A program made the translations under genes and the position numbers. Positions 224 to 20,006 of a stretch of 64,000 nucleotides of DNA are shown piece by piece. The notes beneath the pieces are model-generated. The model made no database searches, was not told the origin of the DNA, and saw only the letters and a program-made list of their open reading frames with translations. Position 1 is the stretch's first letter. Each line of letters begins with the position of its first letter. Source of the stretch: Terriglobia bacterium (GTDB lineage: Bacteria; Acidobacteriota; Terriglobia; 20CM-2-55-15). The stretch covers positions 96,001 to 160,000 of the forward strand of contig CBDCLE010000002.1 of the NCBI GenBank assembly GCA_965218585.1. Direction: 5' to 3'.

Positions 224-329
224 GAGCACTGGTGAGGTGACCCGTAGGCAACTCCTTGGTTGTATCCGGCGCGTACTGACCCATCCACGAAAGCGGGGCG
301 ACTTCAATGATACTTTGGTGAGTGGGCTG

Positions 330-1694: not shown

Positions 1695-1740
1695 GTGGGC
1701 TGTCCATTCGCCCCTAATTCAAAATCGAAACAGACTCAAA

Positions 1741-2403: not shown

Positions 2404-2500
2404 ATCCAGGAATGAAACGAATACATTCGAGCGACGGCTTTACAAACGTGCTGAAGCATCGTCAGTCAAGACTCACCCGTTAGACAAGCGAGAAAACGTC

Positions 2501-3607: not shown

Positions 3608-3648
3608 CAGAGAACGGCGAAAAATCTGAATTCCAGAGAAAAGCCTCA

Positions 3649-3676
3649 ACGTCCGAGACGGGGATTTCCGAGGACC
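3649..3676 (+). repeat. 28-bp 11-6-11 site, copy 3
   Basis: ACGTCCGAGAC-GGGGAT-TTCCGAGGACC, flanked by CTCA / TGAG. Confidence 0.8.
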
Positions 3677-3761
3677 TGAGAATGGATTTCAGCGGCTGAA
3701 GGTGGAACAGCTCCGTTCCCCGGACCGCCGCCCTCACTTTAAAGGTTTGGCGTCGCGCGGA

Positions 3762-4523: not shown

Positions 4524-4558
4524 TTGCGCAATTCTAGTTTCCGTTGCTGAGATTCTCA

Positions 4559-4586
4559 AGGTCCGAGAAGGGGATTTCCGAGGACT
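4559..4586 (+). repeat. 28-bp 11-6-11 site, copy 4
   Basis: AGGTCCGAGAA-GGGGAT-TTCCGAGGACT. Confidence 0.8.
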
Positions 4587-4661
4587 TTTATCCGGAAGCT
4601 CCGGAGCCGAAGTTGAAGATGCTTATCCAAATTTCATTTCCAGCGTCGGGTACAGCGTAGT

Positions 4662-5465
4662 CTAGGGAGCGACGACCTCTGCGATCTCGAAGTGGATGCC
4701 TGCGGGCCCTTCGAAGAACATCAGGTCTGAGCCCGGCGGGTTGGGTCTAACCAGATAGGGCTCGTATCCGGAGGCTTCGAGAACTTCGCGGAACTCTTCC
4801 AGCGAGGGTACGCCAAAACCCATGTGATCGAGTGACCGGTAGCGGCTCGGCGCTGTATCACTCTCCGGAACCTGCGAAATCTGGACCCATAAGTCGCCGT
4901 ACAAGATGGTGTGAAACTGCCCCTTGCCGCGTGCCGGGATATCCTCGCCTCCGAACACTTCAAGGAACCACTCGTGAACGCCGTCCGCGTCGCTCGCCAT
5001 GAAATGGACGTGATTCACTCCCGTGTAGACAGGGTCCTCAAGTAGTTCGATTCGCGTTCCCCAGGGATCCTCGATAAACGCGATGGTTGATGCCGTGATA
5101 CCGACCCGCGGCTCGTCCCGGATCTGTGCGCCCATTTCCCTGGCGAGTGCCACGGTAGCGGCGACGTCTTCAACGGCTATGCCAAAGTGATCGATGACAC
5201 CGCCCTGGCTCGGTCGCGTCTCACCTTCGGTGGGCATTGTCATAACCATGCCGTTGCCGTAACGGACAGCCTGTCCAGGGCCACGCGCGACTACCTCGCC
5301 GCCGAGCAGCGCCTGATGCCACACCGCCGCTTCGGTTGTGTCCGGTACACGCATGTGTACGTGCGTAAAAACGCTCTGCGCGAGGACGGAACCAGGGAGC
5401 AGGAACACGCCCAGCGTCAAGCGAATGAGCTGGATTCGAAGCCGTGGATAATTCGTGTGAGACAT
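4662..5465 (-). CDS. Secreted VOC/glyoxalase family protein (two VOC domains)
   Basis: Signal peptide; HVHM..DHFG..DPWGTRIELLE repeated as HVHF..DHMG..GPAGIHFEIAE. Confidence 0.85.
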   Translation of the reverse strand: MSHTNYPRLRIQLIRLTLGVFLLPGSVLAQSVFTHVHMRVPDTTEAAVWHQALLGGEVVARGPGQAVRYGNGMVMTMPTEGETRPSQGGVIDHFGIAVEDVAATVALAREMGAQIRDEPRVGITASTIAFIEDPWGTRIELLEDPVYTGVNHVHFMASDADGVHEWFLEVFGGEDIPARGKGQFHTILYGDLWVQISQVPESDTAPSRYRSLDHMGFGVPSLEEFREVLEASGYEPYLVRPNPPGSDLMFFEGPAGIHFEIAEVVAP

Positions 5466-5619
5466 GGTGATCTCCTCGTATTCAGGTCGGTGTCGGTATC
5501 GCGAAACACCTCTCCCCTACCACCTCACCGATCTGGCTCGGATCTCGTAGGGACCGAGTCTTGTGCCCGATCGCATGGACTAAGTGTCCAGTTGAGCGGT
5601 CTACTGAAAAACTCGTTAA

Positions 5620-5648
5620 ACGATACTCGAGGTGGGTGTTAGACACAA
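5620..5648 (-). promoter_or_regulatory. Repeat-associated sigma70-type promoter (TTGTGT-N17-TATCGT)
   Basis: Homologous to the promoters at 6432, 9117, 12612 and 15645; points toward the VOC gene. Confidence 0.55.
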
Positions 5649-5659
5649 TCAGAAGGTCA

Positions 5660-5745
5660 GGTCCTCCAGAACGACTTTCCCGGACATTCAGAAAAGACCT
5701 CAAAAATGAGCGTTTCAACGTCCGAGAAGATGATTTATCAGAACT
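5660..5745. repeat. Inverted pair of 28-bp sites (copy 5 at 5660-5687 reverse, copy 6 at 5718-5745 forward, 30-bp gap)
   Basis: Reverse complement of copy 5 is ATGTCCGGGAA-AGTCGT-TCTGGAGGACC; copy 6 is ACGTCCGAGAA-GATGAT-TTATCAGAACT. Confidence 0.8.
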
Positions 5746-5760
5746 TGACCTCAAGTATCG

Positions 5761-5784
5761 GGGCACCGGCACCCGGTCTTTCAG
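5761..5784 (-). pseudogene. Very short Ser/Thr kinase C-terminal remnant (LKDRVPVP)
   Basis: Matches the tails at 7782, 9226, 12726 and 13309, in the same position relative to the 28-bp site. Confidence 0.55.
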
Positions 5785-5819
5785 CGACGTCTCCGCGAAT
5801 CTGTTCGGTACGCCAGTTT

Positions 5820-6329
5820 TCAGTCGCCGCCGACTACCTCCCGAAGTTGAGCGAGGAGCGCGTCGACGGGAATCAGCCGGCCCGTGACGTCCTTCCAGAG
5901 GATGGTGCCCTCTTCATCGAGGAGAAAATAGAAGCGGCTTGCCGCACCGCCTCCGCTCCCGGCTCCGTAACGGCCGATGATCGTTCCATCGGGGTCACTG
6001 ACGAATGGGTTGGGGGTGTTGACTGAAGCCGCGAATTCGCGCTGGCGGTCCGCTCTATCTGTGGAAATGCCGACGACTTCGATACCGAGTGTCTGGAACT
6101 CGGTGTACTTTTCACCGACCTCGGTGAACTCTCGCGTTCAACCGGGAGTGAAGGCGGCCGGGAAGAACGCCAGCAGCACTTTCGTCTGCCCTCGGAGTTC
6201 GTCGAGTCCGAACTCCGGAGCTGTCGAGCCAACCGCAGGCGTGTTGTCCTGTCGGGGAGCCTGGAGCTGAGCTAGGGCGATGCCGCTGGAGACGAACAGC
6301 CCGAGGGCGAGTAACATCAGCTTCTTCAT
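5820..6329 (-). CDS. Secreted peroxiredoxin (AhpC/TSA/BCP-like), probable selenoprotein with UGA at codon 64
   Basis: FFPAAFTPG-TGA-TREF puts UGA at the peroxidatic Cys of PxxxTxxC; the frame stays open (EVVGISTD, VSDPDG, FLLDEEG) to a stop at 5820; a hairpin follows the UGA. Confidence 0.85.
6111..6140 (-). promoter_or_regulatory. Putative bacterial SECIS hairpin
   Basis: UGA-ACGCGAGAG-TTCACCG-AGGT-CGGTGAA: perfect stem beginning 9 nt after the UGA, with a G-containing loop. Confidence 0.65.
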
Positions 6330-6431
6330 CGTCAATTGTCCTCCATATCTATTTACATCGATACACCAACCGGGGTGCCGGACGGGACCCTCCAAGCTGT
6401 GTGCCGGATTCCATTTTGAAAAGCTGGTTAA

Positions 6432-6460
6432 AGGATACGAAAGGCAGAAATTATGTGCAA
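6432..6460 (-). promoter_or_regulatory. Repeat-associated sigma70-type promoter (TTGCAC-N17-TATCCT)
   Basis: Upstream of the peroxiredoxin gene and next to site copy 7. Confidence 0.6.
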
Positions 6461-6485
6461 TGAATCTGTCACAGCGAAATTCTCA

Positions 6486-6513
6486 GCGTCCGAGAAGATG
6501 ATTTCCCAGGACC
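6486..6513 (+). repeat. 28-bp 11-6-11 site, copy 7
   Basis: GCGTCCGAGAA-GATGAT-TTCCCAGGACC within TCTCA...TGAGA. Confidence 0.85.
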
Positions 6514-6736
6514 TGAGACTCACTTTTCACGATCATCTCGGGCACCTCCTGTTTCTCTTGTACATGCCAGAGCTTTCCGCCAATAATAGGCATAATAGCG
6601 GCCGCGTCAGCAGGAGAGTCAAGCGCACGGCCGCGAGAGTTTTTCCGCACGTTCTTTCCGCGGAGCCACAGGGCTCCAAATATCCTGAACCGGCTCCGTT
6701 ATGGGACTGCTCGATCGAGGAGAAAGGAAGGTGCAA

Positions 6737-7689
6737 ATGGCGAAGGTGATCGGACTCGTGGGGCTGTCCGTTCTCATGGTGGCGGGGCTTACCACGCCCA
6801 TCTCTGCCCAGAGGGGCGCGCGTTTTCCCGGGATAATCGATTTTTCTGGCGAGTGGATCGACAACTCGTTTGAAGGAGACGATCGTGTTGGGCCCCCCAC
6901 GGCAGGTCCCCGAGCAAACGGGCTCCAGCACGATGCGTGGCTCGGCAACTACCTGGGCATACCGTACAACGATGCCGGAAGGCAGAAAGGCGCAGCCTTC
7001 GATCTTGCCATCTACTCCCACCCTGCCTGGACATTCCGTCCGCATCCTGTCCAGTATTCCATGCGTGGGGTCATCAACAATTGGAGGATGGCGAAGGAAA
7101 TACATCCGGTGACCGGGGAGCTTGTGGCATACCGAATTACGGGAGGGTACAACCTGGACCGGATCATCTGGATGGACGGTCGGGAGCGTCCTCCCGACTA
7201 TGCCGACACACCTACAATGGATTTTCGACCGGACGGTTCGAGCGTGGAATACTGGTGGTAACGACCACGCACATGAAACACGGATACCACAAGCGTAACG
7301 GCGCTCCGGCGAGTGACCAGGCGACGATGACCGAGCACTTCATACGCCACGGGGATCGGCTGACGATCGTCCAGTTCACCGAGGATCCGGTCTATCTCGA
7401 GGAGCCCTACGTCCGTACCGGGGACCATATCCTGGCACACAATCGGCATGCGAACACTCGTTTCAATGTTCCCACAGCCCCGGGCTGGAACGCAGCCGAA
7501 GAGGTCATCTGGGACGAGGGTTACCTTCCTCACCATCCGTTGGGAACACGTCATACACAGATTTCGGATTTTCTCGGGATTCCTTACGAATCAACGCAAG
7601 ACGGCAGCGAAACGCTCTATCCGGAGTATCGGGAGACCCTGAATCAATTGATGAGTCAGGAAGAAAACGCCCCAGGTGGTGGGAGGTAG
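6737..7689 (+). pseudogene. Secreted hypothetical protein (type often found beside DUF6152), frameshifted near 7205
   Basis: ORF 6701-7261 (..RIIWMDGRERPPDYA) continues in another frame as HTYNGFSTGRFE..TEHF..EDPVYLEEP; paralogous to 14055-14873 (VWMDGR..GYSRGRFE..TERY..LEDP). Confidence 0.75.
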
Positions 7690-7741
7690 AAGACACGATA
7701 GGCTGACCCCCAAAGTGTCGCCCGGAAAAGGAAACTTCTCA

Positions 7742-7769
7742 ACGTCCGAGAAGATGATTTCTCAGGACT
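7742..7769 (+). repeat. 28-bp 11-6-11 site, copy 8
   Basis: ACGTCCGAGAA-GATGAT-TTCTCAGGACT. Confidence 0.85.
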
Positions 7770-7781
7770 TGACCTCGAAAA

Positions 7782-7915
7782 TCAAGGAACCGGCACCCGT
7801 TCCTTCAGTTCTTCAAACCAGTCTAGGACGATCTTGACTTGGGATCGTTGCATCTCACCGTCGTTCTGGAAAGTACGTTTCAGCGCCGGGAATCGTCCAT
7901 CGGGGACACGTCATA
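7782..7915 (-). pseudogene. C-terminal remnant of an acidobacterial Ser/Thr kinase with TolB-like propeller
   Basis: YDVSP(frameshift)DGRF...QVKIVLDWFEELKERVPVP-stop. Confidence 0.75.
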
Positions 7916-7963
7916 ATATGTCACCTATGTCCTGACCGGTGGAGAGGTAGCGATAGGCGGACG

Positions 7964-8881
7964 TCAAGGCTCTGGACTGCTATCTACTACCTCGCGCGTG
8001 GCGTCGCGCCAAGCACCATCGCCCACGACCTTTCCGGGCAACTCCTCTCTCTCGACGCTGACCACAACCTCTGACCCCAGTTGCAGGCTCTCTACACTGT
8101 CTTTCCCCCGCGGCAAAAAGCGGGCGGCGACTTCTCCAAGAGGTGGCCCGTAGAAGTGAATGTCGATGGCATCCTGACCCGAGGTGTTCGAGACGGCATG
8201 AATGGTGTTCGGGCCATCCAACTCCATCAGCATACTCGGATGAATGACGTCTCGCTGGGTCAGTCGGAGCCGGTTCTCGCTCAGTCGATCGAAGTGCGTA
8301 ATCTCGAGCTGTCCCTCGACGGTCTTGCCCAACCCGACGCAATTGTGGGAGTGGATATGAGCGCGGGTACCCGCGGTCCACTGAATTCCGACCAACGAAC
8401 CGTTTCCTTTCTTGCTCTCCCAGTAGATGGCGCGTCGGTAGTTGATCGGAGGAAGAATCGCGCTCTTTCGTATTGGTTCGAGCTCTCCGATGACCGGGTA
8501 GACCTGCTTCAAGATCCTTTTCGCGACTGTTGGAGTGAGATCCTCTTCCAAGTCGTAGTACTCGAATAGGTCAACCGCCTCGCGTAACGACAGTGGCGCT
8601 CTCGAAGCGAGGCGATGCCTTAGCTGTGTCGTTTCCGGTAGGATGAGCCGTCCCAATCGGTAGAGACCAAAGGAAATAACGAGTGCGATGCCCCCGGAAG
8701 TGAGCACGAGCCACGGAGAGTTTCTGGCGAAAAACAGCAGCATGACGAGCGATACCCCGGCCATGCCGATCGAGCCGCAGGCACCCGCGACTACGGCCTT
8801 CCAACCAATCTCAACGATCGTGGCCAGGTTGATCCGGAGACCTATTCCCGCACACACGCAGACGATCAGAAACGATACCAC
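7964..8881 (-). pseudogene. 5'-truncated fusion: YeiH/putative sulfate exporter C-terminus plus cysteine dioxygenase-like cupin
   Basis: AGIGLRINLATIVEIGWKAVVAG resembles the YeiH C-terminal helices; WTAGTRAHIHSH..IHAVSN..IHFYGPP is a CDO-type cupin; the N-terminal transporter part is missing. Confidence 0.6.
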
Positions 8882-9038
8882 CTGGTCATTAATCGAGAGG
8901 GTCGTGGCCCAGGCTCCAGTACCGCCAAAGAACGCACGACAGCAGCGTCTCAGTTTTAGGAAATGGGCGGTGAGGCGGGGACAAAACCCGTATATCGGAT
9001 GTAGAAGGTATGCAGGTGGTCCGGAAACTTGGAAAAAG

Positions 9039-9074
9039 GACTTCGTACTGGCCGAGTTTGGTGCTGGATTCCAT
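9039..9074 (-). pseudogene. Ser/Thr kinase N-terminal remnant (MESSTKLGQYEV)
   Basis: Near-identical to the kinase start at 15593 ([12 protein letters not shown]); directly downstream of the repeat promoter. Confidence 0.7.
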
Positions 9075-9116
9075 GTTTAAAGTATGTCGCTGACAATACC
9101 GTGAAAATCTCGGCAA

Positions 9117-9145
9117 AGAATACTAAGGGAGGGGTTTGTAAGCAA
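9117..9145 (-). promoter_or_regulatory. Repeat-associated sigma70-type promoter (TTGCTT-N17-TATTCT)
   Basis: Identical to the copy at 12612-12640. Confidence 0.7.
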
Positions 9146-9175
9146 TCAGAAGGTCAACATCCGTATTAATTCTCA

Positions 9176-9203
9176 ACGTCCGACAAGATGATTTAACAGG
9201 CGT
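9176..9203 (+). repeat. 28-bp 11-6-11 site, copy 9
   Basis: ACGTCCGACAA-GATGAT-TTAACAGGCGT; outer arms extend to ATTCTCAACG / CGTTGAGAAT. Confidence 0.85.
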
Positions 9204-9225
9204 TGAGAATCATTTTCATGGTCGA

Positions 9226-9288
9226 TTAGGGGACCGGCACCCGTTCCCTCAGTTCTTCAAACCAGTCCAGGATGATATTGATCTGCTC
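9226..9288 (-). pseudogene. Ser/Thr kinase C-terminal remnant (EQINIILDWFEELRERVPVP-stop)
   Basis: Direct translation; abuts the stop codon of the MBL gene. Confidence 0.75.
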
Positions 9289-9291
9289 ATC

Positions 9292-10155
9292 CTACCGGCC
9301 TTCGGCCTCCTGAAGCATCGCGTCGAATCGGGTCTCGACGCCCTCCACGTAACCCCTCCACCCTTCCGCGTCAAAGCAGGTCACACACCCCGAATCGACA
9401 GGAAGAGCCGGGTCCAACTCGCGGGGCGGATTCTGCGGGTGGTTGTGGAGAAAGAGGTCGGGAGGTTCGAGATCCCTCAGCCGTAGAAGCGTCCTCTGCG
9501 TATCGGCCACAACCGTCGGGTGCCTGGGATTGTTGAAGAGCTGAACGCCAGCGTTCGGAATTTCGCCGCCACGGAAAGCGACGGAGTAGGCATTCCCACC
9601 CTGCTGGGCAGTTGTCATCCACATCGTTGCTCCTTGCGTGTGGCCACCTGTCCAGAGGGCGCGTAACGTTACCCCGCCCAACGCGACGGTGTCACCGTCC
9701 TCGATCACGCGATCCACCGTGACAGGCTCCCAGCCTCGGGCTCCGAGAGCCGAGTTGTCCTGGCCTGACTGGAGCGCCACCGCGTCGCCGCCGAGCGCGA
9801 CAACTTGCGCGCCGGTCACCCGCTTCATTGCCGCATGTCCCTCAACGTGGTCCCAATGCGCATGGCTCGAGATCATGATCCGAATGTCCCGGACGTTGAA
9901 CCCAAGTTTCTCGACGTTCGACACGATGAGCGCATGCATATCGGCGCTGCCCGTGTCGTGGAGAATGTGACCCTCTGGCGTGGTTATGAGATAGGAGCCA
10001 TATTGGCCGCCGACATAGTAGATATTGCCTATGACGCGGAACGGTTCCACGCCTTGGCTCTCCGCTTGACTCCGCTCGCCTCGCTCCGCTGCACCATACG
10101 GGGACACCGATAGCATCGCAGCACTCAGCAATACCAACGCACATATCAGACGCAT
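9292..10155 (-). CDS. Subclass B3 metallo-beta-lactamase-fold protein, secreted
   Basis: Signal peptide, EPFRVIGNIYYVG, SYLITTPEGHIL, SHAHWDH, GGHTQG, HNHP. Confidence 0.88.
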   Translation of the reverse strand: MRLICALVLLSAAMLSVSPYGAAERGERSQAESQGVEPFRVIGNIYYVGGQYGSYLITTPEGHILHDTGSADMHALIVSNVEKLGFNVRDIRIMISSHAHWDHVEGHAAMKRVTGAQVVALGGDAVALQSGQDNSALGARGWEPVTVDRVIEDGDTVALGGVTLRALWTGGHTQGATMWMTTAQQGGNAYSVAFRGGEIPNAGVQLFNNPRHPTVVADTQRTLLRLRDLEPPDLFLHNHPQNPPRELDPALPVDSGCVTCFDAEGWRGYVEGVETRFDAMLQEAEGR

Positions 10156-10468
10156 AACGGCCTCCTTAACAATAGTGCGTGTCGCAAGTCCGCTTCCGGA
10201 CGGTATGGAATGGAATTTCGATTCTTGGATGAGCTGGATCACGTTCTTGGTCCGGAGTTCGTTAGAATGCAGGAGAGCCTTGCCGAGATCCAGGCACTCA
10301 GTCGAATCTTGCAGGACTGAAAGTCCTCAACTCCTCCAAATTGTCTCGTTCCGATCGTCACTCTGGTCTGCCGTCATGCCGCGCAACTGCGATGATTCGT
10401 GATATCCGGGCGAAGTTCCGAGATGAACGGCAGTGCTCACGAACTCACTGAAGCCTGACTGTGGGTCA

Positions 10469-11104
10469 TCAGCGAAGCTCTGTGCCTCCCCTTCGGTCGT
10501 CAGTAACAAACTTGTCCCTGGCGGGCATCTCGACCCGTGGGAGCGTGTCGGCGTTCATCACCGCGTCCTCGCTGATAATGTCATTCAGATAGAGAAGATA
10601 AGCGGTCAGGCTGTAGACCTCGTTCGGTTCGAGTGTGCCTGGCGCGTCGAACGGCATCGCGCGGAAGGTGTAGTCGTACAGGGTAGTAGCAAACGGCCAG
10701 TAGTTACCGATCGTTCTTGCGAGCGAGGGCTCGTTGCCGAACGGAAATCCTTCACGTGGCTCTCGTCCGACGAGCTGATCGAACGGCTGGCCCTCGCCGT
10801 TCGGGCCGTGGCACATCCCACACTTTTCGATGTACAGCTGTTGACCCTGCTCGGCGGTGCCGCTGCCAGCCGGCAGGCCCCGGCCGTCTGGTGTGACGTC
10901 GATATCCCAGGCCGCGATCTCAGCTTCCGTGGCAGGGCGGCCGAAACCGAACCGCTGCGGCTGCTGTTCGGTGCCCTGCTGGGCCTGCATGTAGATCGGA
11001 ACTGCCAACAGCACGACACCCAATGCCCTCACCACGCTTACGCCGAAACCGACGCGTACAAGTCGATACCTTGACATCAATCCGTTACTCCATCCGGGTC
11101 GCAA
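10469..11104 (-). CDS. soxD: Monoheme cytochrome c, SoxD-like
   Basis: FGRPATEAEIAAWDIDVTPDGRGLPAGSG, CGMCHG, YWPFATTLYDY..AMP; directly downstream of soxC. Confidence 0.85.
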   Translation of the reverse strand: MRPGWSNGLMSRYRLVRVGFGVSVVRALGVVLLAVPIYMQAQQGTEQQPQRFGFGRPATEAEIAAWDIDVTPDGRGLPAGSGTAEQGQQLYIEKCGMCHGPNGEGQPFDQLVGREPREGFPFGNEPSLARTIGNYWPFATTLYDYTFRAMPFDAPGTLEPNEVYSLTAYLLYLNDIISEDAVMNADTLPRVEMPARDKFVTDDRRGGTELR

Positions 11105-11170
11105 TCTGCGGTGGTGAGGAAGCTCATTCAGTTTTCAGTTCTCAAGTGGCTGTGGCCCCGAGCTCCGCTC

Positions 11171-12436
11171 CTACCCATCCACCGCAAACACCGTCGACCC
11201 ATCCTGGCGCACACGGCACCCACGGATGTGGTTGTAGTGATAGCTCGTGCCGATACCGCGCACGGCAATCAGCTCGTCGAGCGTCGGCTGCACGTAGCCC
11301 GTCTCGTCAGTCGCGCGGCTCAGGATGACGGTTTCCTCTCCCTGCCAGTTGAACACCGCGCGAAACCGCGTGTGGCAGATCGGCAGCACCGGATCCTGTA
11401 GCTGGGCGTCCTGCCACGTACGGCCACCGTCGGTCGTGATCTCGACCCGCACGATCCTGCCGCGGCCGCTCCACGCCAGCCCGGAGATCTCCCACCACCC
11501 GCGCTCGGATAACGTATCGGGGTAGGCTGGGAATGTGATGATCGACTTTGCGTCCATCGTGAAGCTGAATTGACGCGCCGTGCCGTCCGGCAGCGGGTCG
11601 GTGTACTTGGACGTTTCCTCGCGCGTCATGAAGGCCTCGTCGCCGACTTCGATGCGACGGATCCACTTGATGCTGGAGTTGCCTTCCCAGCCCGGCAGGA
11701 ACAGGCGCACCGGATATCCCTGCTCCGGCCGCAGCGCCTCACCGTTCTGCCCATACGCAATCAGCGCGTCATCCATCACCTTGGACATCGGGATACTGCG
11801 CGTCATGACCGCTGCGTCGGCACCTTCCGCCAGGATCCACGTGGCTTCAGCAGGCACCCCAACCTCCTGCATGAGCGTCGCCAACGGCACGCCTATCCAT
11901 TCGCTGGTGCTCGTCAGGCCGTCGACCGCCTGGGGCGTGCGTTCCTCGGTCGCGCGGTCGCGATAGGAGCCGCCGCCGTTGCCGGAGCATTCCATGAAGT
12001 GGATGACCGAGCGTGAGGGGAACCGCCTCAGATCGGCCACCGTGAACATCGTCGGCCGATCGACCATACCGTGGATGAGCAACGTGTGTCTTTCCGGGTC
12101 GATGTCCGGGATGCCACCGTGATGCCGCTCGAAGTGCAGGTCGGACGGCGTGATGATGCCGTCGAGATCCTGGTGCGGCGTACGGGAGCTGGTCGGCCGC
12201 TCGCTGGAGTACAGCCGCCTAGGCTGCTCGAATGCTGACCTCGTGCCCAGCTCACTGGCGCCTCGCCCTTGGACCTTAGTTGGATCGTCGGGCACCGTCG
12301 GCTGCTCTTGCTGCCGGGCATGCGCCTTGCCGAACGGCATGGCAGCCGTACCCAGGACGCTAGCCGTGCCTACCAGCATGGCGCGGCGACTGATCGGTTG
12401 CCGGGGGGAGCTGCTCCGGGTGATCTGCTTAGCCAC
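11171..12436 (-). CDS. soxC: Sulfite dehydrogenase molybdopterin subunit SoxC, Tat-exported
   Basis: SRRAML Tat motif, ITPSDLHFERHH, ECSGN, QNGEALRPEQGYPVRL, SIKW; GTG start with GAGGAG RBS. Confidence 0.92.
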   Translation of the reverse strand: MAKQITRSSSPRQPISRRAMLVGTASVLGTAAMPFGKAHARQQEQPTVPDDPTKVQGRGASELGTRSAFEQPRRLYSSERPTSSRTPHQDLDGIITPSDLHFERHHGGIPDIDPERHTLLIHGMVDRPTMFTVADLRRFPSRSVIHFMECSGNGGGSYRDRATEERTPQAVDGLTSTSEWIGVPLATLMQEVGVPAEATWILAEGADAAVMTRSIPMSKVMDDALIAYGQNGEALRPEQGYPVRLFLPGWEGNSSIKWIRRIEVGDEAFMTREETSKYTDPLPDGTARQFSFTMDAKSIITFPAYPDTLSERGWWEISGLAWSGRGRIVRVEITTDGGRTWQDAQLQDPVLPICHTRFRAVFNWQGEETVILSRATDETGYVQPTLDELIAVRGIGTSYHYNHIRGCRVRQDGSTVFAVDG

Positions 12437-12611
12437 TGATGTCTCCTCAAGATTTACATTGGGTGATTCGCGTAGGATACCGGGAATATACCATGGAGCG
12501 CATGTGAGTGGCGAACCACCAGTGCTACTATCTGCTGGGTTCACTTCATGCTCACTCGGGCTCGGAGACACGGGTGGGACTGACAGGCAAGAAGACCTAA
12601 AAACTCGCTAA

Positions 12612-12640
12612 AGAATACTAAGGGAGGGGTTTGTAAGCAA
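12612..12640 (-). promoter_or_regulatory. Repeat-associated sigma70-type promoter (TTGCTT-N17-TATTCT) upstream of soxC
   Basis: Identical to 9117-9145. Confidence 0.7.
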
Positions 12641-12676
12641 TCAGAAGGTCAACGCTTGTATTTAGGCCAATTCTCA

Positions 12677-12704
12677 ACGTCCGACAAGATGATTTATCAG
12701 GCGT
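12677..12704 (+). repeat. 28-bp 11-6-11 site, copy 10
   Basis: ACGTCCGACAA-GATGAT-TTATCAGGCGT; the block at about 12604-12765 closely matches about 9109-9266. Confidence 0.85.
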
Positions 12705-12725
12705 TGAGAATCATTTCATGGTCGT

Positions 12726-12779
12726 TTAGGGAACCGGGACCCGCTCCCTCAGTTCTCCAAACCAGTTGAGAACAACGTA
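12726..12779 (-). pseudogene. Ser/Thr kinase C-terminal remnant (YVVLNWFGELRERVPVP-stop)
   Basis: Direct translation. Confidence 0.75.
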
Positions 12780-12843
12780 GGTCGAACGGCAACTCCCATC
12801 GCTCGTACGAAACACGTAAACGCTATTAGGCGGCAGGGAATGA

Positions 12844-13239
12844 CTATGTGGCAACCGGTTGCCACGTCACAAGCGCCACCTGCCACTCGCCGCCCGTCCT
12901 CCGTAGGATCCATAGATGCGTTCCCGCCGTAACCCTCACCTCGGAGCTTCCTGCAGCGGCATAGCGCGTGCTGTAAGTACTAGTCTTGTACGCGAACGAA
13001 TCGCTCCCACGAATCTGGATGTCGGCCGTCTGGATTTCTCGAATCTCGACACCCGGCTCTGCCAACAACTCTCTAGCCGCTACCTTGCCAACAAGTAGCT
13101 CCGAGTTAGGAACAAGCCACTGCACGTCGTCGGTGCATAGTTGCAGCACCCCCAGAACATCTCCGTCCAACTCCCTGGCGATCCACCGATCGTGAAGGTT
13201 TCTAATTTCCTGAAGATCTCGGTGGGATAGGTCGGACAT
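12844..13239 (-). CDS. NTF2/SnoaL-like (DUF4440/YybH) protein
   Basis: Small alpha/beta pattern: LCTDDV, VGK, C-terminal ILRRTGGEWQV. Confidence 0.8.
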   Translation of the reverse strand: MSDLSHRDLQEIRNLHDRWIARELDGDVLGVLQLCTDDVQWLVPNSELLVGKVAARELLAEPGVEIREIQTADIQIRGSDSFAYKTSTYSTRYAAAGSSEVRVTAGTHLWILRRTGGEWQVALVTWQPVAT

Positions 13240-13308
13240 GGCCTCACCCGTGACACATCCTACCGTTACGTGCAACACAAGCTGTCACGAACTGAACCTT
13301 TCGATGTT

Positions 13309-13347
13309 TCACTGCACCGGAACCCGTTCCTTCAGTTCTTCAAACCA
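13309..13347 (-). pseudogene. Ser/Thr kinase C-terminal remnant (WFEELKERVPVQ-stop)
   Basis: Direct translation (end of ORF 13309-13548). Confidence 0.7.
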
Positions 13348-13599
13348 GGGTCGAAAGTCGTTCCGAACCAGACTGGACTCCAGGCTGGTAAGTTCATGAC
13401 TTTCATAGCATTTCGCGGAGCTAAGCGAAGCGTGCAAAAAGTGGATGCCTGAACTCACTCCACCGGCACGCGCTCGCGCAGCTCTTGGAACCAGTTCTGG
13501 GCGATGTTGATTCGAGGTGTGGAGCAGCGGCACGGACTGCTCCGGCAACGTCGTTCCTCCAACTACAGAGGAACGATCTATCGCCCCGTTTTTCCGGCT

Positions 13600-13989
13600 T
13601 TACTGCCCGGGATTACGAATGTTGAAGACGCGGCCGTCCTCGGTGGTCACCTGATAAATGAGGACGCCTCTCATGCCGTTCGCATGCGGGGGATTACCCG
13701 AAACGGTAATTCGAGTGCCGGGCGCGATCGTGTCGTTGCCGGCGTAACCGGCTTCTCTCATGCCCTGTAGCGAAGCCGAGGTTCCTACCCACCGCTCGCC
13801 GTTTTCGTCGGTCCATGCGAGCTGCGAATGTGGGTTCATTATCCTAGCTCCCACCAGGGTTCCGGCTACCTCTATCTGAGCCTCGGTATTCCAAAACGTC
13901 GTAACCGAGTGGTGTGCGACGGCAGAGACACTCAGCGAAACAAGGATCCCCACCGCCCACAATGCTGAAACCCAAGTACGAATTCTCAT
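13600..13989 (-). CDS. DUF6152-like secreted protein
   Basis: Signal peptide then AHHS, NPHS, PG..ITVSGNP, DGR tail. Confidence 0.8.
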   Translation of the reverse strand: MRIRTWVSALWAVGILVSLSVSAVAHHSVTTFWNTEAQIEVAGTLVGARIMNPHSQLAWTDENGERWVGTSASLQGMREAGYAGNDTIAPGTRITVSGNPPHANGMRGVLIYQVTTEDGRVFNIRNPGQ

Positions 13990-14054
13990 GACCATTACTC
14001 CTAATGTTCTCATCAAGGTTGGTCTAGGACTCTTGAGCCCTCACCACATTCTCA

Positions 14055-14873
14055 CTACCGATTGATGGAAATGTCGGCACCATATGGATCCGGAACCGTC
14101 CCTTCCACTTCGAACAGGTTATATTCCGGATCGCAGTTATACACGCCCATCGGCACATGTTCAGCATCCCGCGTCATCATGTGGCTCCACGTAAAAGGCC
14201 TCAACAGCATGAGAGGATCCTCGAGCGTGATGGTCACTCTCATTGTGTCCTCGTCCAGCAACATATAACGCTCAGTGACCTTTTTCATGTCCGAACTGGG
14301 AATATGGAGATGGTCGTCGATTCCATCCACGTCGAATGTGAAATTCGTCGTCTCGATAACGAATTCGTTGTCTCCCTCGAAGCGACCTCTCGAATACCCC
14401 GTAAACCAGGAATCCCTGGGGTGTGGGGCATCTCGCCCGTCCATCCAGACGTGGCGGGTGTGCCAGTAGTAACTCTGTATGATCTGCAGTTCGACCTCGG
14501 ACACGAATCTCCACGTGTGGATCATCCCATCCAACGCGGCGGGTACCGTCGGCGGTTTGCAGTGCCATTTCGGTGAGAGGTATTCATCGCGGCGAAAGAT
14601 CTCCGTTAAGGCCAATGCCCGAGGGCTCAAGTAAGGTTCTAGGTCATTGTACGGAATCGAACACCGGATCACGGGGTTGCCCACTGTATTCGTAAGATGC
14701 CCACAGGCTTCAGACTGATTGAAATCGTTACCCATGATATTCCACGACCCGTGGAAGGCCGGCGGCCACGAATTTGCCTGGGCCTTGAGGTCCTCGGTGC
14801 CCACCAGCGTGACGGCGGTTAGCAAGGCAAGTGTTGCCAACAAACTCCACGCTTTTTGTGTCCATGAATGCAT
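14055..14873 (-). CDS. Secreted hypothetical protein associated with DUF6152
   Basis: Signal peptide; CxPxxxP, RHVWMDGR, GYSRGRFEGD, IETTNF, TERY, LEDP, YNC. Confidence 0.8.
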   Translation of the reverse strand: MHSWTQKAWSLLATLALLTAVTLVGTEDLKAQANSWPPAFHGSWNIMGNDFNQSEACGHLTNTVGNPVIRCSIPYNDLEPYLSPRALALTEIFRRDEYLSPKWHCKPPTVPAALDGMIHTWRFVSEVELQIIQSYYWHTRHVWMDGRDAPHPRDSWFTGYSRGRFEGDNEFVIETTNFTFDVDGIDDHLHIPSSDMKKVTERYMLLDEDTMRVTITLEDPLMLLRPFTWSHMMTRDAEHVPMGVYNCDPEYNLFEVEGTVPDPYGADISINR

Positions 14874-14964
14874 GGTTGCTGCTCCTTGTACTTGTTGCGG
14901 GTTCAGAGTTTGTATATCACCACAATGTCAAATATCCAGCATGAAATTGTGGGCCCGCGGCCTC

Positions 14965-15363
14965 CTACGGTGCCGGCTCCGGATCCGGCCCTCCGCCGTA
15001 TCTCCTCCCGTCGGGAAGAGTGATTGAGGACAACTGGCCCGCGAGGGCTTCCGTAACGGAAGGAAAAGCGACAACGGTCACTTCTTGACCGACCGGCAAG
15101 GTCACTGGGGTAAAACCCGTAAAGATGAAGCCGCGAATGGAACCGCCTTCGAGAGCCCAATTGAGCACTTCGCCCCCTTCGTCCTTCACGTCGATATAGA
15201 GTGACGCATGGGGACTCCGTAGGACGAACTCCGTGACGGTGCCGCGCAATGTGACCGGATTCCTCCTGTCAACCGATAGTGGTGTCGAGTGATGCCCGTC
15301 GAGCGATCCAGAGAAGATAGACAGGACGGCAAACAAGCCGAAAACCGTGGCCAACCTTTTCAA
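14965..15363 (-). CDS. DUF6152-like secreted protein
   Basis: GHHS, GTVTEF, SPHA, WALEG, LPDGR. Confidence 0.82.
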   Translation of the reverse strand: MKRLATVFGLFAVLSIFSGSLDGHHSTPLSVDRRNPVTLRGTVTEFVLRSPHASLYIDVKDEGGEVLNWALEGGSIRGFIFTGFTPVTLPVGQEVTVVAFPSVTEALAGQLSSITLPDGRRYGGGPDPEPAP

Positions 15364-15422
15364 CAGGTAGTCTCCAATTACCGCAGATTCCTCTCCGGTT
15401 TTCTCGTGAGTCTGTCTGTAGG

Positions 15423-15593
15423 ACGTTCAAATCGGGCAAGCCGATCAGCATCCTCGGCAAACTCCTCAGGCGTTGTCTTAATAGCCACCTCACGCCCGAG
15501 CTTCGTGTCCCGAGCACGCCACACCTCACCCATTCCACCCTTCCCTAAGAGCGTTGAGATCTCGTAGTGGCCGAGTTTGGTGCCGGATTCCAT
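15423..15593 (-). pseudogene. Ser/Thr protein kinase N-terminal fragment (Gly-rich loop and VAIK only)
   Basis: [47 protein letters not shown], after which homology stops. Confidence 0.9.
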
Positions 15594-15644
15594 GTCTTTA
15601 GAGTGTTGTGCGGTCACAGACCGCACCTACAGAAATTCCGGCTA

Positions 15645-15674
15645 AATATAACTACAGGTGGGAGTTATTCGCAA
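15645..15674 (-). promoter_or_regulatory. Repeat-associated sigma70-type promoter (TTGCGA-N18-TATATT) upstream of the kinase fragment
   Basis: Same position relative to the reverse 28-bp site as at 5620-5687. Confidence 0.55.
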
Positions 15675-15685
15675 GAAAAGTCTCA

Positions 15686-15713
15686 AGTCCTCGCAAACGA
15701 TCTTCTCGGACGT
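15686..15713 (-). repeat. 28-bp 11-6-11 site, copy 11 (reverse), right boundary of the array
   Basis: Reverse complement is ACGTCCGAGAA-GATCGT-TTGCGAGGACT; 15661-15717 closely matches about 113-169. Confidence 0.85.
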
Positions 15714-15890
15714 TGAACTTTGCTTGGATCCGACCAGAGTCCTTCAGGTCAATGTTTTCCTGGAGTTGAGGTACCCGGGGGTTCCTAGAATCGGTCAACT
15801 ATATATTCCCCCTCGAACACACGTTCCTGACCATCAGCGCAGGAAGTGAGGAGTTCACATGAGGTTCGGAGAGGGATCGGCCGCGGGGAT

Positions 15891-16151
15891 CTAAACTTCG
15901 GGAGAGCGGGTGAAGAGTTCGACCATATAGTCGTTGAGGTTCCCGTACAACAATCCCTGGAAACTCCATCTGAACTGAGGATGACCGATTTCTCGTTCTG
16001 TCAGAGTGAAATGATACTCAGTCGAATGAACCTCTCGGATCTTGGAGCGCACACACACATCGACACCGTCCGCTGATTCCTCTGCCGAAAACTCGAAAAA
16101 AGGATGCTCGTAGAGTTCTAATTCAAGCAGGACCTTTCTCTTCAAGTCCAT
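15891..16151 (-). CDS. Hypothetical protein (86 aa), coupled to the upstream exonuclease gene
   Basis: ATG overlaps the upstream stop codon; plausible composition. Confidence 0.65.
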   Translation of the reverse strand: MDLKRKVLLELELYEHPFFEFSAEESADGVDVCVRSKIREVHSTEYHFTLTEREIGHPQFRWSFQGLLYGNLNDYMVELFTRSPEV

Positions 16152-17497
16152 CAGCCAGCCACAAACCCTTCGCGTCTTTGCGCCTTTGCGGCAAAGATCT
16201 GCGCCTCTGCAAGTCTCGGTTCGGCATCTCTGATGACTCTTTGCATTTTCTTCTCGATTCGTTTCTTCCGGGCTTCTAAACGGGCGCGGCGGCGTTCCAT
16301 CCATGACAGGCCGGCGGTCCGGTCCAAAGCTTCATCGAGCACCTTTGACGCTGCCTCCAGGTCCTTACCATGATATTCGTGAAAGATAGAAGCGCCTTCG
16401 TACCCGACGATGCTGAACTCGGAACGCTGCATCAACTCCTCACACCTCTGGAAGGAACGGGTGTGTTCTCCCATTCGCCGGTAGAGTACAGACAGACGTT
16501 CTAAAATCCGGACCCGCACTTCGGGGGGCAGTGGCGAAGCCAACGCTATTTCAAAACAGCGAACGCTTTTGGAGCGATTTCTAGCCTTGTCGAACACCCT
16601 GCCCAGGGAATAAACGTCCAGGGCGTCGTCCAGTGGCGCCGGCTCACGAACAACCCCGTCTGCCGCATGAATAGCAAGCGCGGCCAGGGAGAGGATGTCG
16701 TAGACGTGATGGGAGAACACCCTTGTGAGGGTCGTCGCATCGGACGACTGCAAATAGTCAAAATAAGCTCTGGGGATCATCGAACCAGGAATGTCCGGAC
16801 CACGCCCGAACCCGACGAGCTTCTCTTCAAGCGCGGTCAACCGGCAGCTCCCGTGACCGGCCCGCCATAACCTGCGTGCTATGAACAGAAGATCGAAGTG
16901 AGACATGTGCTCGAAAGGACTTTCGAGACGTGACAGGACGCAGCGGTTCCGAACCAGCGGCAGGTCAAATGTCCGGCCGTTGTAGGTCACGATCAGTTCG
17001 AATCGCTCGAGGAACTCACCGAGGGCCAGTAACATCGACCCTTCCTCGTCGAAATCGCGTATGAAATATTGAACAACGTGAAACTGATCTCCGCTAAAGA
17101 AGCCCATTCCTATCAGAAACGGGCACATGCCCACACCACCGTGCACACCCGTCGTTTCCGTATCCAGAAAGACGATTCGCTCTCGGTCCAGGTTCTTATG
17201 CGAACAACCGGCAAGATCGAGCAACACAGAAAGGTCGTCGACCGACAATCGATCCAGACGGACGTTACCGTGAAAGTGAGGGTCGGGATATGAATTCGTA
17301 ATGACGTAGTGTTCGCCTTGAGCGGTCGATTCGATTCGGCCATCGGGCAAGGAACACATAGGTGGGCCAGAAATTCTCGCGCGAGAAGTTTCGGAACCGG
17401 GAGGGTCTTTGAGAAATTTGAGCTGATCGGAAATCGAAAACCGAGGCGAAGCAGTCTCACCTCTAAGACGGTTCAGCGCCTTTCGAAACTGGGTCAT
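16151..17497 (-). CDS. RNase H-like DEDD exonuclease with TPR-like tail (YprB/MrfB-like)
   Basis: FLDTETTG, VTYNGRTFDLP, HFDLL, DIPG..IP..YF, YDILSL; adjacent to the helicase. Confidence 0.88.
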   Translation of the reverse strand: MTQFRKALNRLRGETASPRFSISDQLKFLKDPPGSETSRARISGPPMCSLPDGRIESTAQGEHYVITNSYPDPHFHGNVRLDRLSVDDLSVLLDLAGCSHKNLDRERIVFLDTETTGVHGGVGMCPFLIGMGFFSGDQFHVVQYFIRDFDEEGSMLLALGEFLERFELIVTYNGRTFDLPLVRNRCVLSRLESPFEHMSHFDLLFIARRLWRAGHGSCRLTALEEKLVGFGRGPDIPGSMIPRAYFDYLQSSDATTLTRVFSHHVYDILSLAALAIHAADGVVREPAPLDDALDVYSLGRVFDKARNRSKSVRCFEIALASPLPPEVRVRILERLSVLYRRMGEHTRSFQRCEELMQRSEFSIVGYEGASIFHEYHGKDLEAASKVLDEALDRTAGLSWMERRRARLEARKKRIEKKMQRVIRDAEPRLAEAQIFAAKAQRREGFVAG

Positions 17498-19905: not shown

Positions 19906-20006
19906 GACAGGTCCACAACTCGGCCACTAACATTGTCGGACAGGAGGTCTGCACGTATGATGGAGATCAGCCCTTCGAACACATAACTCTGGAGGATCCA
20001 AGCCTG

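Follow-up and report, generated by a model that had tools for sequence, protein, structure and literature searches.

The question raised by this locus is how fragments of a single Ser/Thr kinase gene came to alternate with unrelated genes. The fragments lie between positions 3646 and 15716 of the window, the whole 64,000-nucleotide stretch of DNA that was analysed, from an uncultured, soil-type acidobacterium of the Terriglobia (Table 1). An earlier note suggested that an ancestral tandem kinase array serves as a landing scaffold, in which foreign genes replace kinase interiors while the kinase ends act as homology arms; its alternative was a recombination system whose original cassette was the kinase. 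The genome under study (G000) was compared with its four congeners (G001 to G004) and with other genera, among them that of G017. The reading that we favour, and to which we would give about an even chance, is that the region is one of approximately 17 arrays in which palindrome-bounded cassettes are shuffled by site recombination, with a kinase unit as the founding cassette.

All seven kinase remnants of the earlier note are present on the minus strand, although the one at 5761-5784 is only a partial tail that has lost its stop codon; a sixth tail and a weak third head can be added. The heads and tails are genuine and much too frequent to be accidental, given that the strict tail motif occurs 14 times and the head motif 15 times in the whole of G000, versus none for either in the same genome read backwards. 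All 14 strict tails and 10 of the 15 heads fall within the arrays, which make up 3.3% of the genome, so that the remnants are not equally dense elsewhere. The described order of promoter-like block, head, cargo, tail and site holds for 9167-7739, but not for the unit that starts at 15674, where the tails at 13455 and 13309 have no site and the next site, at 12674, lies past a further gene and a third tail. A sigma-70 scan made no call on the block at 9104-9167, and the sigma-70-like matches in the region are no more numerous than in shuffles.

Table 1. Features of the array between 3646 and 15716 of the window.
Position	Strand	Feature	Basis
3646-3679	+	Site copy, matches the 22-nt conserved half with 3 mismatches	Pattern search, alignment
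3762-4559	-	Cargo, PCMT (protein-L-isoaspartate O-methyltransferase)	Pfam PF01135, E 1.6e-66
4556-4589	+	Site copy, variable arm degenerate	Pattern search
4662-5465	-	Cargo, glyoxalase-fold protein	Pfam PF00903
5541-5576	-	Weak third kinase head remnant, MRSGTRLGPYEI	
5607-5670	-	Promoter-like block, degenerate copy	Repeat family D4, 63% identical to copy 9104-9167
5715-5748	+	Site copy, 0 mismatches	Pattern search
5761-5784	-	Partial kinase tail, LKDRVPVP	
5873-6395	-	Cargo, probably a single frameshifted gene split into two overlapping ORFs	No Pfam match
6483-6516	+	Site copy	Pattern search
6701-7689	+	Cargo on opposite strand, two overlapping ORFs	Paralogue family with members elsewhere in genome
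7739-7772	+	Site copy, 0 mismatches	Pattern search
7782-7837	-	Kinase tail remnant, KIVLDWFEELKERVPVP*	
7964-8881	-	Cargo, membrane protein with cysteine-dioxygenase-like (CDO-like) cupin domain	Pfam PF05995, E 8e-6
9039-9074	-	Kinase head remnant, 12 residues, MESSTKLGQYE	
9104-9167	-	Putative promoter block common to kinase 5' regions	Repeat family D4
9173-9206	+	Site copy, second variable-arm type	Pattern search
9226-9281	-	Kinase tail remnant	
9292-12571	-	Three-gene cargo	Profile matches of its genes
9292-10242	-	Metallo-beta-lactamase fold (MBL) gene, first of the three	
10469-11104	-	Cytochrome c, in the same cargo	
11171-12571	-	Molybdopterin oxidoreductase, sulfite-oxidase type, in the same cargo	
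12599-12662	-	Promoter-like block	Repeat family D4, 89%
12674-12707	+	Site copy	Pattern search
12726-12781	-	Kinase tail remnant	
12844-13278	-	Cargo, DUF4440/SnoaL-like protein	
13309-13364	-	Kinase tail remnant, no site behind	
13455-13510	-	Sixth kinase tail remnant, no site behind	
13600-15363	-	Cargo, three genes: DUF6152 (13600-14016), 272-aa protein (14055-14873), DUF6152 (14965-15363)	No Pfam match for the 272-aa protein
15384-15593	-	Kinase head remnant, ~70 residues, to glycine loop and VAIK lysine	Pkinase 1-41; matches intact kinase
15645-15674	-	Sigma-70-like promoter match between variant site and head	Consensus match only
15683-15716	-	Variant site, different centre, inverted relative to the others, upstream array end	I1-I6

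The 28-bp site of the earlier note is a real repeated site, but it is only the inner part of an imperfect palindrome of 34-40 bp. In gene direction this palindrome reads CTCAAGTCCTGAGAAATCATCTTCTCGGACGTTGAGAAT, with a variable arm followed by an invariant centre and then a nearly invariant arm. The window contains 8 matches, versus none in 100 shuffles. In an ungapped profile of 152 copies, conservation of at least 80-90% is confined to positions -13 to +26 relative to the centre and falls to background beyond. There are 64 copies in G000, 153 in G001, 109 in G003, 10 in G002 and 2 in G004, as well as single copies in three genomes of other genera, such that the palindrome is present in 8 of the 41 genomes searched; a reversed-pattern control gave zero. 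In G000 it delimits short cassettes in the ~17 arrays, each unit being a single gene or small operon between palindromes. Pair covariation within the palindrome is not above that of shuffles, and a folded single-strand substrate is therefore without support.

The intact genes show that the palindrome natively flanks the 3' end of kinase genes from a single Ser/Thr subfamily of Pkinase+PD40 type, and that a complete unit consists of a site, then the promoter-like block that these units have in common, then the kinase and a second site. All six intact kinases of the subfamily in G000 have the site or a variant of it, plus the promoter block, upstream, where their absence would have told against the earlier note, and those with a preserved 3' end have the tail and site downstream. 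Two clean site-kinase-site units are found in G001, where the intact unit encodes a Pkinase+PD40 Ser/Thr kinase. Tail and site are also present in G017, as is a succession of head, cargo, tail and site. Most units now carry non-kinase genes, and the sites that adjoin a tail number 31 of 72 (G000) and 44 of 94 (G001). Hollowed-out kinases are only a subset of this larger palindrome-cassette pattern.

The cargo of the arrays includes GNAT, glyoxalase, APH, MBL, cupin and DUF6152 proteins and many proteins without a family; the DUF6152 genes also recur in G001 arrays, and the cargo at 6701-7689 has 70-81% nucleotide identity to copies on contigs C9 and C24. For the core flank, mrfB/mrfA/pepA, nucleotide identity is 76-77% and third-codon-position identity is 0.47-0.60 to all four congeners, versus third-position values of 0.70-0.90 to G001 and G003 for the PCMT, glyoxalase, CDO-like and MBL genes (for glyoxalase and MBL, to G004 as well). 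Cargo genes are 85-93% identical between species with ~77% identical core genes. At the nucleotide level, PCMT is 92-93% identical to G001 and G003, with homology stopping at the upstream site; the glyoxalase gene is 88-90% identical to G001, G003 and G004, limited to the ORF; and the MBL gene is 85-88% identical to the same three genomes. The arrays of G000, G001 and G003 share 42 non-repetitive modules, many of them 92-98% identical.

These identities bear on the idea of pure decay, in which an old tandem kinase array amid ordinary genes lost its kinases by deletion and the palindrome is a kinase terminator or operator. Deletion alone leaves the difference in third-position identity between cargo and core unexplained, and does not account for neighbours that are split into different arrays elsewhere with the break on the site. 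Decay is consistent with the site following the kinase stop codon in other genera, with the frameshifted ORFs in two cassettes and with the IS256 copies that break up several heads. Two site copies are called terminator-like, but terminator-like matches in the region number 6 versus a shuffle mean of 10, and head remnants mostly bunch at 80 residues or fewer rather than being spread along the 850-890-residue gene. We consider pure decay very unlikely.

In those related modules that allow a comparison, the homology ends at the site, and each arm stays with its own flank. Among 168 module ends, 50 are no more than 120 bp from a site centre, versus ~11 expected, and 24 (counted from the module table) within 25 bp, versus ~2 expected; the expected counts are simple arithmetic from 228 sites in 849 kb, the enrichment is inflated because module ends and sites both sit in intergenic DNA, and the modules are not independent, as the same cassette is counted in several genome pairs. 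Only one homologous segment of at least 400 bp crosses a site by at least 100 bp, and it has an IS in that site. G001 and G003 both have a copy, from site to site, of a 460-bp G000 cassette (C4:188843-189302), which adjoins PCMT in G001 and sits in a different array in G000. In eight paired site alignments, identity switches inside the site or at its edge, with an unusual variable arm moving with the cassette interior and an unusual conserved-arm flank with the other side.

Foreign genes replacing the interiors of a kinase scaffold by homologous recombination, with head and tail as arms, would leave the switch in those arms, but where both sides can be traced it falls within the 34-40 bp site. 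Conservation does suit such arms, given that heads (with the promoter block) and tails are far better conserved than kinase interiors: the first ~40 residues of the kinase copies are near-identical, compared with identities of 55-67% for the kinase domains and 32-38% for the C-terminal domains, and tail-plus-site stretches are 90-96% identical across species. Units with both head and tail exist, also in another genus, but account for only 2 of 35 non-kinase intervals in G000 and 8 of 73 in G001, whereas 13 of 35 and 34 of 73 have neither head, promoter block nor tail. Moreover, the proposal predicts shared head/cargo and cargo/tail joints, and no compared cargo shares them between copies. The CDO-like gene (89% nucleotide identity between G000 and G003) shares only its ORF and ~50-100 bp, the orientation of the MBL gene to its junction differs among G000, G001 and G004, and a 96.8% identical C4/C9 duplicate within G000 has opposite orientation to the sites and unrelated flanks. 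Exchange through kinase ends is therefore quite unlikely. The same cargo with unrelated flanks and in either orientation indicates that something besides site-to-site exchange also moves or reshapes cargo. The other suggestion of the earlier note, the kinase as original cassette, fits best, and its interpretation is on the whole partly supported.

In the favoured cassette reading, the palindrome would act as a recombination site through which cassettes leave, enter and change order, much as they do in an integron, and the kinase unit would be the founding cassette. Contigs from public runs gave no excision or insertion variants, at a depth too shallow for such variants to show. New cassettes may arise by one-off illegitimate events, in which other DNA lands inside, or replaces the inside of, a resident cassette, usually that of a kinase. 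Such events would allow heads with their promoter and tails of varying length to persist next to sites, to be trimmed later.

The palindrome could instead be a self-multiplying, REP-like extragenic repeat, selfish or regulatory, that does no more than mark intergenic DNA and draw in IS elements, while IS-driven and illegitimate rearrangement in hypervariable islands mimics cassettes. We judge this unlikely, although less so than the other two rivals. Like the REP/BIME repeats associated with RAYTs, the site is an imperfect palindrome of 20-40 bp that lies outside genes, mostly downstream of them, is lineage-specific (here restricted largely to a genus) and reaches tens to hundreds of copies, and for the majority of module ends (118 of 168) the nearest site is over 120 bp away. 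IS elements abound in the genome: one of the IS256 family has ~70 copies, and there are many others, several of which adjoin sites; these elements could account for much of the shuffling. IS110-family elements interrupt three site copies at the same position, right where the invariant centre begins or ends, and of the six G001 copies of an IS91-type element that carries an integrase, five abut a site; elements of both types also target REPs and attC sites. Unlike REPs, however, the palindromes cluster in the array islands rather than being dispersed, as single copies 0.4-5 kb apart with no head-to-head or tail-to-tail dimers seen, and they have no GTAG or CGTC end tag, CGTC instead lying inside the conserved arm. 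Their arms co-segregate with flanks, and the segment comparison found no case of a site gained or lost within otherwise collinear sequence. Y1 (IS200-type) transposase genes are present but not flanked by sites, nor does their abundance track that of the sites, with one or two copies in G001, G003, G004 and G017 and 12 matches in site-poor G002. According to passages of PMC3733652, acidobacterial RAYT-like genes have long inverted repeats as flanks, not REPs.

No recombinase linked to the arrays was found in searches of G000 for integron integrases, of which none scored above the cut-off, and for tyrosine recombinases, whose 12 matches are XerC, XerD and phage-type integrases, none of them beside an array. 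The most likely of three candidates is an unrecognised dedicated site-specific recombinase. The second is IS110-family elements, copies of which could recombine and then excise cleanly, and the third is RecA acting on the 40-250 bp junction repeat.

Comparison with known systems gives partial likenesses. In Neisseria, dRS3 repeats, NIMEs and minimal mobile elements are short repeats that bound mosaic intergenic arrays; the inter-repeat units are non-coding blocks of 50-150 bp, and genes are exchanged via flanking core genes. The arrays described here share the short bounding repeats, their targeting by IS110/Piv-type recombinases and, as for minimal mobile elements, the swapping of gene-sized units between strains, but here the units are genes and the breaks are on the repeat. 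Passages of PMC3733652 also mention dRS3. The pdif (Xer) modules of Acinetobacter plasmids are short as well, and they likewise have no dedicated recombinase next to them and a bounding site with a 28-bp core, in which two arms, one of them better conserved, surround a 6-bp centre. In contrast to them, the site here has no likeness to the canonical dif candidate of its own genome, its copies are in direct rather than alternating orientation, and the arrays are chromosomal, at ~17 loci.

Sedentary chromosomal integrons and CALINs, which are clusters of attC sites without an integrase, likewise line up accessory genes, mostly one by one and with few promoters, and each gene has an imperfect palindrome specific to the lineage behind it. 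Further likenesses are the arrays without a nearby integrase, cassette order that varies between related genomes, cargo of GNAT, glyoxalase, APH, MBL-fold and unknown proteins, and insertion of IS110/IS1111-type elements into sites. Integrons differ in having an IntI, which was not found in G000, and in attC sites of at least 57 bp with an R''-L''/L'-R' layout, whereas the site here is 34-40 bp, with one strongly conserved half and an invariant centre, and derives from the flank of a kinase gene family. Many cassettes here also bring a promoter-like block, and only 120 of 207 ORFs near sites (58%) are co-oriented, a share far below that of integrons. The stretch resembles an integron in the way its genes appear to be shuffled, but without the enzyme typical of integrons, and its non-kinase cargo was exchanged among species of the genus well after they had diverged.

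For the kinase remnants of the window, the earlier note had offered two readings, either that foreign genes replaced the interiors of a tandem kinase array whose ends served as homology arms, or that the kinase was the original cassette. The remnants were confirmed, and the most likely role of the kinase is that of founding cassette in a shuffling system built on a site, rather than that of a scaffold with ends acting as homology arms. All five C-terminal remnants (tails) and both N-terminal remnants (heads) reported previously are present, together with a sixth tail and a weak third head (see the table of features). A six-frame translation of the source genome, G000, contains 14 matches to the strict tail motif and 15 to the head motif, and neither is found in the reversed genome. 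All 14 strict tails and 10 of the 15 heads are concentrated in about 17 arrays, which together account for 3.3% of the genome. The family is a Hanks-type Ser/Thr kinase with a PD40 (TolB-like) propeller, with both domains found in intact members and remnants that match both ends. Intact kinases of 850-890 residues consist of Pkinase and the PD40 propeller (E 2e-48 and E 1e-23, respectively, for an 889-aa kinase unit of the congener G001); the head in the window aligns to Pkinase positions 1-41, and tblastn places remnants at kinase residues 1-70.

The arrays are delimited by a site with a variable arm, an invariant centre and a conserved arm, and the intact kinases carry it as well: all six long members of the subfamily in G000 have a site, or a variant with a different centre, about 100 bp upstream. 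Kinases of G000 that keep the 3' end show the order tail, stop codon, site, two clean site-kinase-site units are found in G001, and a genome of another genus has the same tail-stop-site order and, consecutively, a head, an unrelated 343-residue ORF, a tail and a site. The association in G000, G001 and another genus points to the site as an old companion of the kinase gene. Intact kinases of the subfamily devoid of the site were not found in G000, nor are remnants equally dense elsewhere in the genome. The proposed unit order ending in a site fails for the tails at 13309 and 13455, neither of which has a site behind it.

Features and their coordinates
Feature	Location	Strand	Remarks
Array of the window	window 3646-15716	minus	about 11 genes in eight units
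Variant site at upstream array end	window 15683-15716		inverted
Promoter match	window 15674-15645		between variant site and head
Sixth tail	window 13455-13510
Weak third head	window 5541-5576
Overlapping ORF pair	window 5873-6395		different frames
Overlapping ORF pair	window 6701-7689		different frames
Paralogues of the 6701-7689 ORFs	G000 C9:16-37 kb		cluster of at least 7 copies
Second variant site	window 139-170	minus	points outward from window
Normal site	G000 C2:94792		just upstream of window start
IS256-family element	window 330-1694		Mutator-type transposase, 432 aa
End of synteny with congeners	window 15890-15901		exactly at array start
nth-folE block	G000 C24:362720		beside amidohydrolase genes, no adjoining site
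Half-site	G004, L041:3560-3645		behind tail remnant
460-bp cassette	C4:188843-189302
Segment with support for site-bounded movement	C12:18942-20118
dif-like 28-mer	G000 C10, about 37.5 kb	minus	palindromic inner arms
IS91-type element	L038:860-3400; L074-L078; L049:8084-10143; L067:9222-14549; L079, L080
IS110-family elements	G000 C10:600-2700; L052:16700-18200; G001 C9 around 1120400-1122530		transposase of 374-380 aa
Reverse-transcriptase ORFs (451 aa)	G000, e.g. C1:61828, C4:44195, C17:205853
Structured repeat	L040:3810-3930; L039:3514-3640; L073 around 10000-10200

Stretches were counted between consecutive co-oriented sites, in G000 and in the fetched arrays of G001. Hollowed-out kinases, in which cargo (non-kinase genes) sits between a head and a tail, do exist as described earlier, but they are a minority of the non-kinase stretches. 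The counts of remnants per stretch therefore make the site-bounded cassette the general unit, with kinase remains as frequent passengers. Among ORFs near sites in the G001 arrays, IS genes included, 120 of 207 are co-oriented with them.

Content of stretches between consecutive co-oriented sites
Class	G000	G001 (fetched arrays)
All stretches	38	77
Kinase, at least 600 residues	3	2
Partial kinase, 150-599 residues	0	2
Non-kinase	35	73
Non-kinase, head and tail	2/35	8/73
Non-kinase, promoter block and tail	4/35	1/73
Non-kinase, tail only	11/35	23/73
Non-kinase, head only	3/35	7/73
Non-kinase, promoter block only	2/35	0/73
Non-kinase, no remnant	13/35	34/73

Seven of the eight units in the window array are co-oriented. 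Pfam names a PCMT, a glyoxalase-fold protein, a cysteine-dioxygenase-like (CDO-like) cupin protein, a DUF4440 protein, two DUF6152 proteins, and a metallo-beta-lactamase-fold (MBL) protein with cytochrome c and a sulfite-oxidase-type molybdoenzyme; in three units there are ORFs that match no Pfam family. The array is flanked on the left by an IS256-family transposase, a methyltransferase and a MetE-like gene and on the right by mrfB- and mrfA-like genes. Two cassettes each contain an overlapping ORF pair that resembles one frameshift-split gene, and a short unit beyond the second variant site ends at a normal site. Parts of the stretch are contained in nine public sequencing runs, and contigs of four were compared with window 1-20000; own-strain depth is 2-3x with breaks at repeats, too shallow for excision or empty alleles. 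Every listed joint in these contigs runs from one repeat copy (tail, site, promoter block or head) to another, across unknown letters.

The 22-nt conserved half of the site is found seven times on the plus strand of the window and once inverted, and never in 100 shuffles; G000 holds 64 site copies against none in the control. The site is present in 8 of 41 genomes of the class searched, with 153, 109, 10 and 2 copies in the four congeners and one copy each in three genomes of other genera. Strong conservation in an ungapped profile of 152 copies is limited to about 40 bp; the element is an imperfect palindrome whose conserved unit spans 34-40 bp and has one bulge. Sites of one array are arranged as direct repeats, with the inverted variant at the upstream end as the one exception, and the copies are solitary, 0.4-5 kb apart. 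A 64-nt promoter-like block, known from kinase 5' regions, stands behind three window sites; one promoter match was located, and the numbers of promoter-like and terminator-like matches in the window region do not exceed those of shuffles. Single copies form bulged hairpins with z-scores of -1.1 to -2.8, a modest gain over shuffles; across 30 copies, pair covariation does not exceed that of shuffles, and one half and the centre are nearly invariant, with the other half variable. These properties agree better with protein binding to double-stranded DNA than with a folded strand. Larger folds that pair the tail with the promoter block are unsupported, and an Rfam scan of window 3000-16500 gave no family over threshold.

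Homology between arrays often ends at the site. Of 168 segment ends, 50 fall within 120 bp of a site centre, where about 11 are expected from site density, and 24 fall within 25 bp, where about 2 are expected from density, or by a rough estimate perhaps 8 if ends are confined to intergenic DNA. Among homologous segments of 400 bp or more, a single one continues for at least 100 bp beyond a site on both sides, and it has an IS inside the site. The 460-bp cassette recurs from site to site in G000, G001 and the congener G003; it adjoins PCMT in G001, and the two lie in separate arrays in G000. Site-bounded movement is supported for this cassette, for the PCMT upstream end and for the C12 segment. 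Eight paired site alignments show the change of identity inside the site, about four of them between the conserved and variable arms, that is, at the invariant centre, and three at the outer edge of the conserved arm. The variable arm thus belongs to the cassette on its own side, which accounts for the pairing of its two main types with two types of tail-side flank. In the site-poor congener G004, one tail remnant has just the variable half of a site behind it; at the centre, unrelated sequence stands in place of the conserved half, as a past exchange or insertion at that point would leave it.

The remaining 118 segment ends are not near any site, and site-bounded movement is unsupported for the CDO-like gene, the MBL gene and a C4/C9 duplicate. 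The CDO-like gene and its G003 copy have in common only the ORF and about 50-100 bp upstream, with unrelated tail spacers and tails of different lengths. The MBL gene has the same direction as the junction in the window and the opposite one in G001, and in G004 it is divergent from a tail and half-site. The 1447-bp duplicate of G000, 96.8% identical, has sites on either side in each of its two arrays, yet its orientation relative to those sites is opposite, and one copy is truncated within a small upstream ORF. The differing flanks and orientations of these copies argue against kinase ends as homology arms, and the non-site ends, ORF-only homology and mixed orientations indicate that imprecise events also place or reshape cargo. 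Such events may be those that create and trim cassettes.

The right-flank genes mrfB, mrfA and pepA are collinear in all four congeners at 76-77% nucleotide identity, with third-codon-position identity of 0.47-0.60. Copies of the PCMT, glyoxalase, CDO-like and MBL genes in G001, G003 and, for part of them, G004 are 85-93% identical to those of the window, with third-position identity of 0.70-0.90, and apparent true orthologues (PCMT in G004, glyoxalase in the congener G002) give 0.61-0.63. Some cargo genes have counterparts among ordinary chromosomal genes, such as a 78% PCMT copy in G004. Neighbouring cargo genes of the window are distant or on separate contigs in relatives, and homology ends 0-100 bp from each ORF. 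A comparison of array DNA from G000 (151 kb), G001 (362 kb fetched) and G003 (336 kb fetched) gave 42 shared non-repetitive segments, many of them 92-98% identical. By these identities, cargo has moved between species. The order mrfA, mrfB, small ORF, nth, folE is common to the four congeners, and synteny of G000 with all of them stops at the array start, the nth-folE block being on another contig. This was considered as an empty versus filled allele and rejected, given that the relocation of nth is a rearrangement and not a clean insertion. A further conserved structured repeat, whose two arms enclose GGCGAAACGG...CCGTTTGGCC, follows the glyoxalase gene in G003 and G004; in G002 it is found behind the ORF on the mrfB side.

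Several enzymes were considered for the site. A search of G000, which is 95% complete, for IntI (TIGR02249) gave XerD- and XerC-like ORFs as the best matches, which scored 84 and 71 bits and so stayed below the cut-off of 265, and its tyrosine recombinases comprise XerC-/XerD-like proteins and phage-type integrases distant from arrays. XerCD acting via dif was rejected, since the canonical dif-like 28-mer of G000, likely the chromosome dimer resolution site, is unrelated to the site. Y1/RAYT genes were also rejected: of two in G000, one has its nearest site about 1.8 kb off with two genes between and the other has none nearby, and Y1 copy numbers are similar or higher in site-poor genomes. Thirteen RVT_1 matches are scattered over G000, mostly in ORFs of group-II-intron size, some 3-20 kb from arrays; several of these places hold near-identical reverse-transcriptase ORFs, and two such ORFs lie within 3 kb of variant sites.

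Insertion sequences do approach the site. In an IS91-type element, a tyrosine recombinase (293-303 aa) precedes a Y2 transposase, and in five of six near-identical G001 copies the integrase-side end lies 27-34 bp from a site or degenerate site; diverged versions adjoin sites in G003 and in G017, a genome of another genus. The element is absent from G000 by tblastn (PF04986 also gave no match, with a control that matched nowhere). It is better seen as an IS that targets the site than as the enzyme of the system. Three copies of IS110-family elements, from two genomes, share one insertion point, where the invariant centre meets the variable arm, and this point falls inside the stretch where the central identity switches map. 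IS110-family genes recur in G001 arrays. If two site-inserted IS110 copies recombined and then excised cleanly, chimeric sites like those observed would result. A second IS110-type end is seen at the same point in two other G001 sites. The IS256-family element has about 70 copies of about 99% identity in G000, several of which have a site, promoter block or kinase head no more than 50-450 bp away.

The system resembles an integron array or Xer modules, yet it lacks defining features of integrons, dif modules and REPtrons. IntI, the integron integrase (a tyrosine recombinase with an additional IntI domain), was not found in G000. Integron cassettes are co-oriented, with every ORF ahead of a site of its own, and travel as units bounded by sites; here co-orientation holds for seven of eight window units but for only 120 of 207 ORFs in the G001 arrays, and some modules but not others support such travel. 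The attC site has the architecture R''-L''...L'-R' with extrahelical bases over 57-141 bp, whereas this site has 34-40 bp and a single bulge, and its outer arms CTCAAC...GTTGAG merely resemble R boxes. XerC-/XerD-like genes are present, but the site is unlike the host dif candidate, and Xer/dif modules have alternating sites whereas the arrays here have direct repeats. A REP is likewise a short, imperfect extragenic palindrome with many copies; in a REPtron, however, the RAYT gene is flanked by repeats, unlike the Y1 genes of G000, and REPs are dispersed genome-wide with frequent dimers (BIMEs), whereas these sites are single and array-clustered. Full-text searches of the literature, with passages from PMC3733652 and PMC3174227, yielded no description of the site or of kinase-flanked cassettes. 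Were the site merely a REP-like repeat, gene flow between species focused on about 3% of the genome would still be documented, as would three kinds of insertion sequence homing on one palindrome.

It is possible, albeit rather doubtful, that these arrays represent a new gene-capture system of Terriglobia. Its two-armed site of 34 bp would have arisen as the 3' flank of a PD40 kinase gene and would serve a putative recombinase, possibly of the IS110/Piv type rather than a tyrosine integrase, in the excision, insertion and exchange of cassettes, both inside one species and across species, with new cassettes overwriting the interior of the kinase cassette. If so, the arrays would be a natural record of the birth of cassettes in an integron-like system, an open question for integrons too. 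Should the site be a genuine recombination site, Acidobacteria would own a cassette-exchange system outside the integron family, by which small accessory enzymes, among them products of aminoglycoside-phosphotransferase-family, GNAT, glyoxalase and metallo-beta-lactamase-fold genes, would pass from one species to another. The arrays would then also give a rare view of cassette birth, since the remains of the overwritten cassette stay attached.
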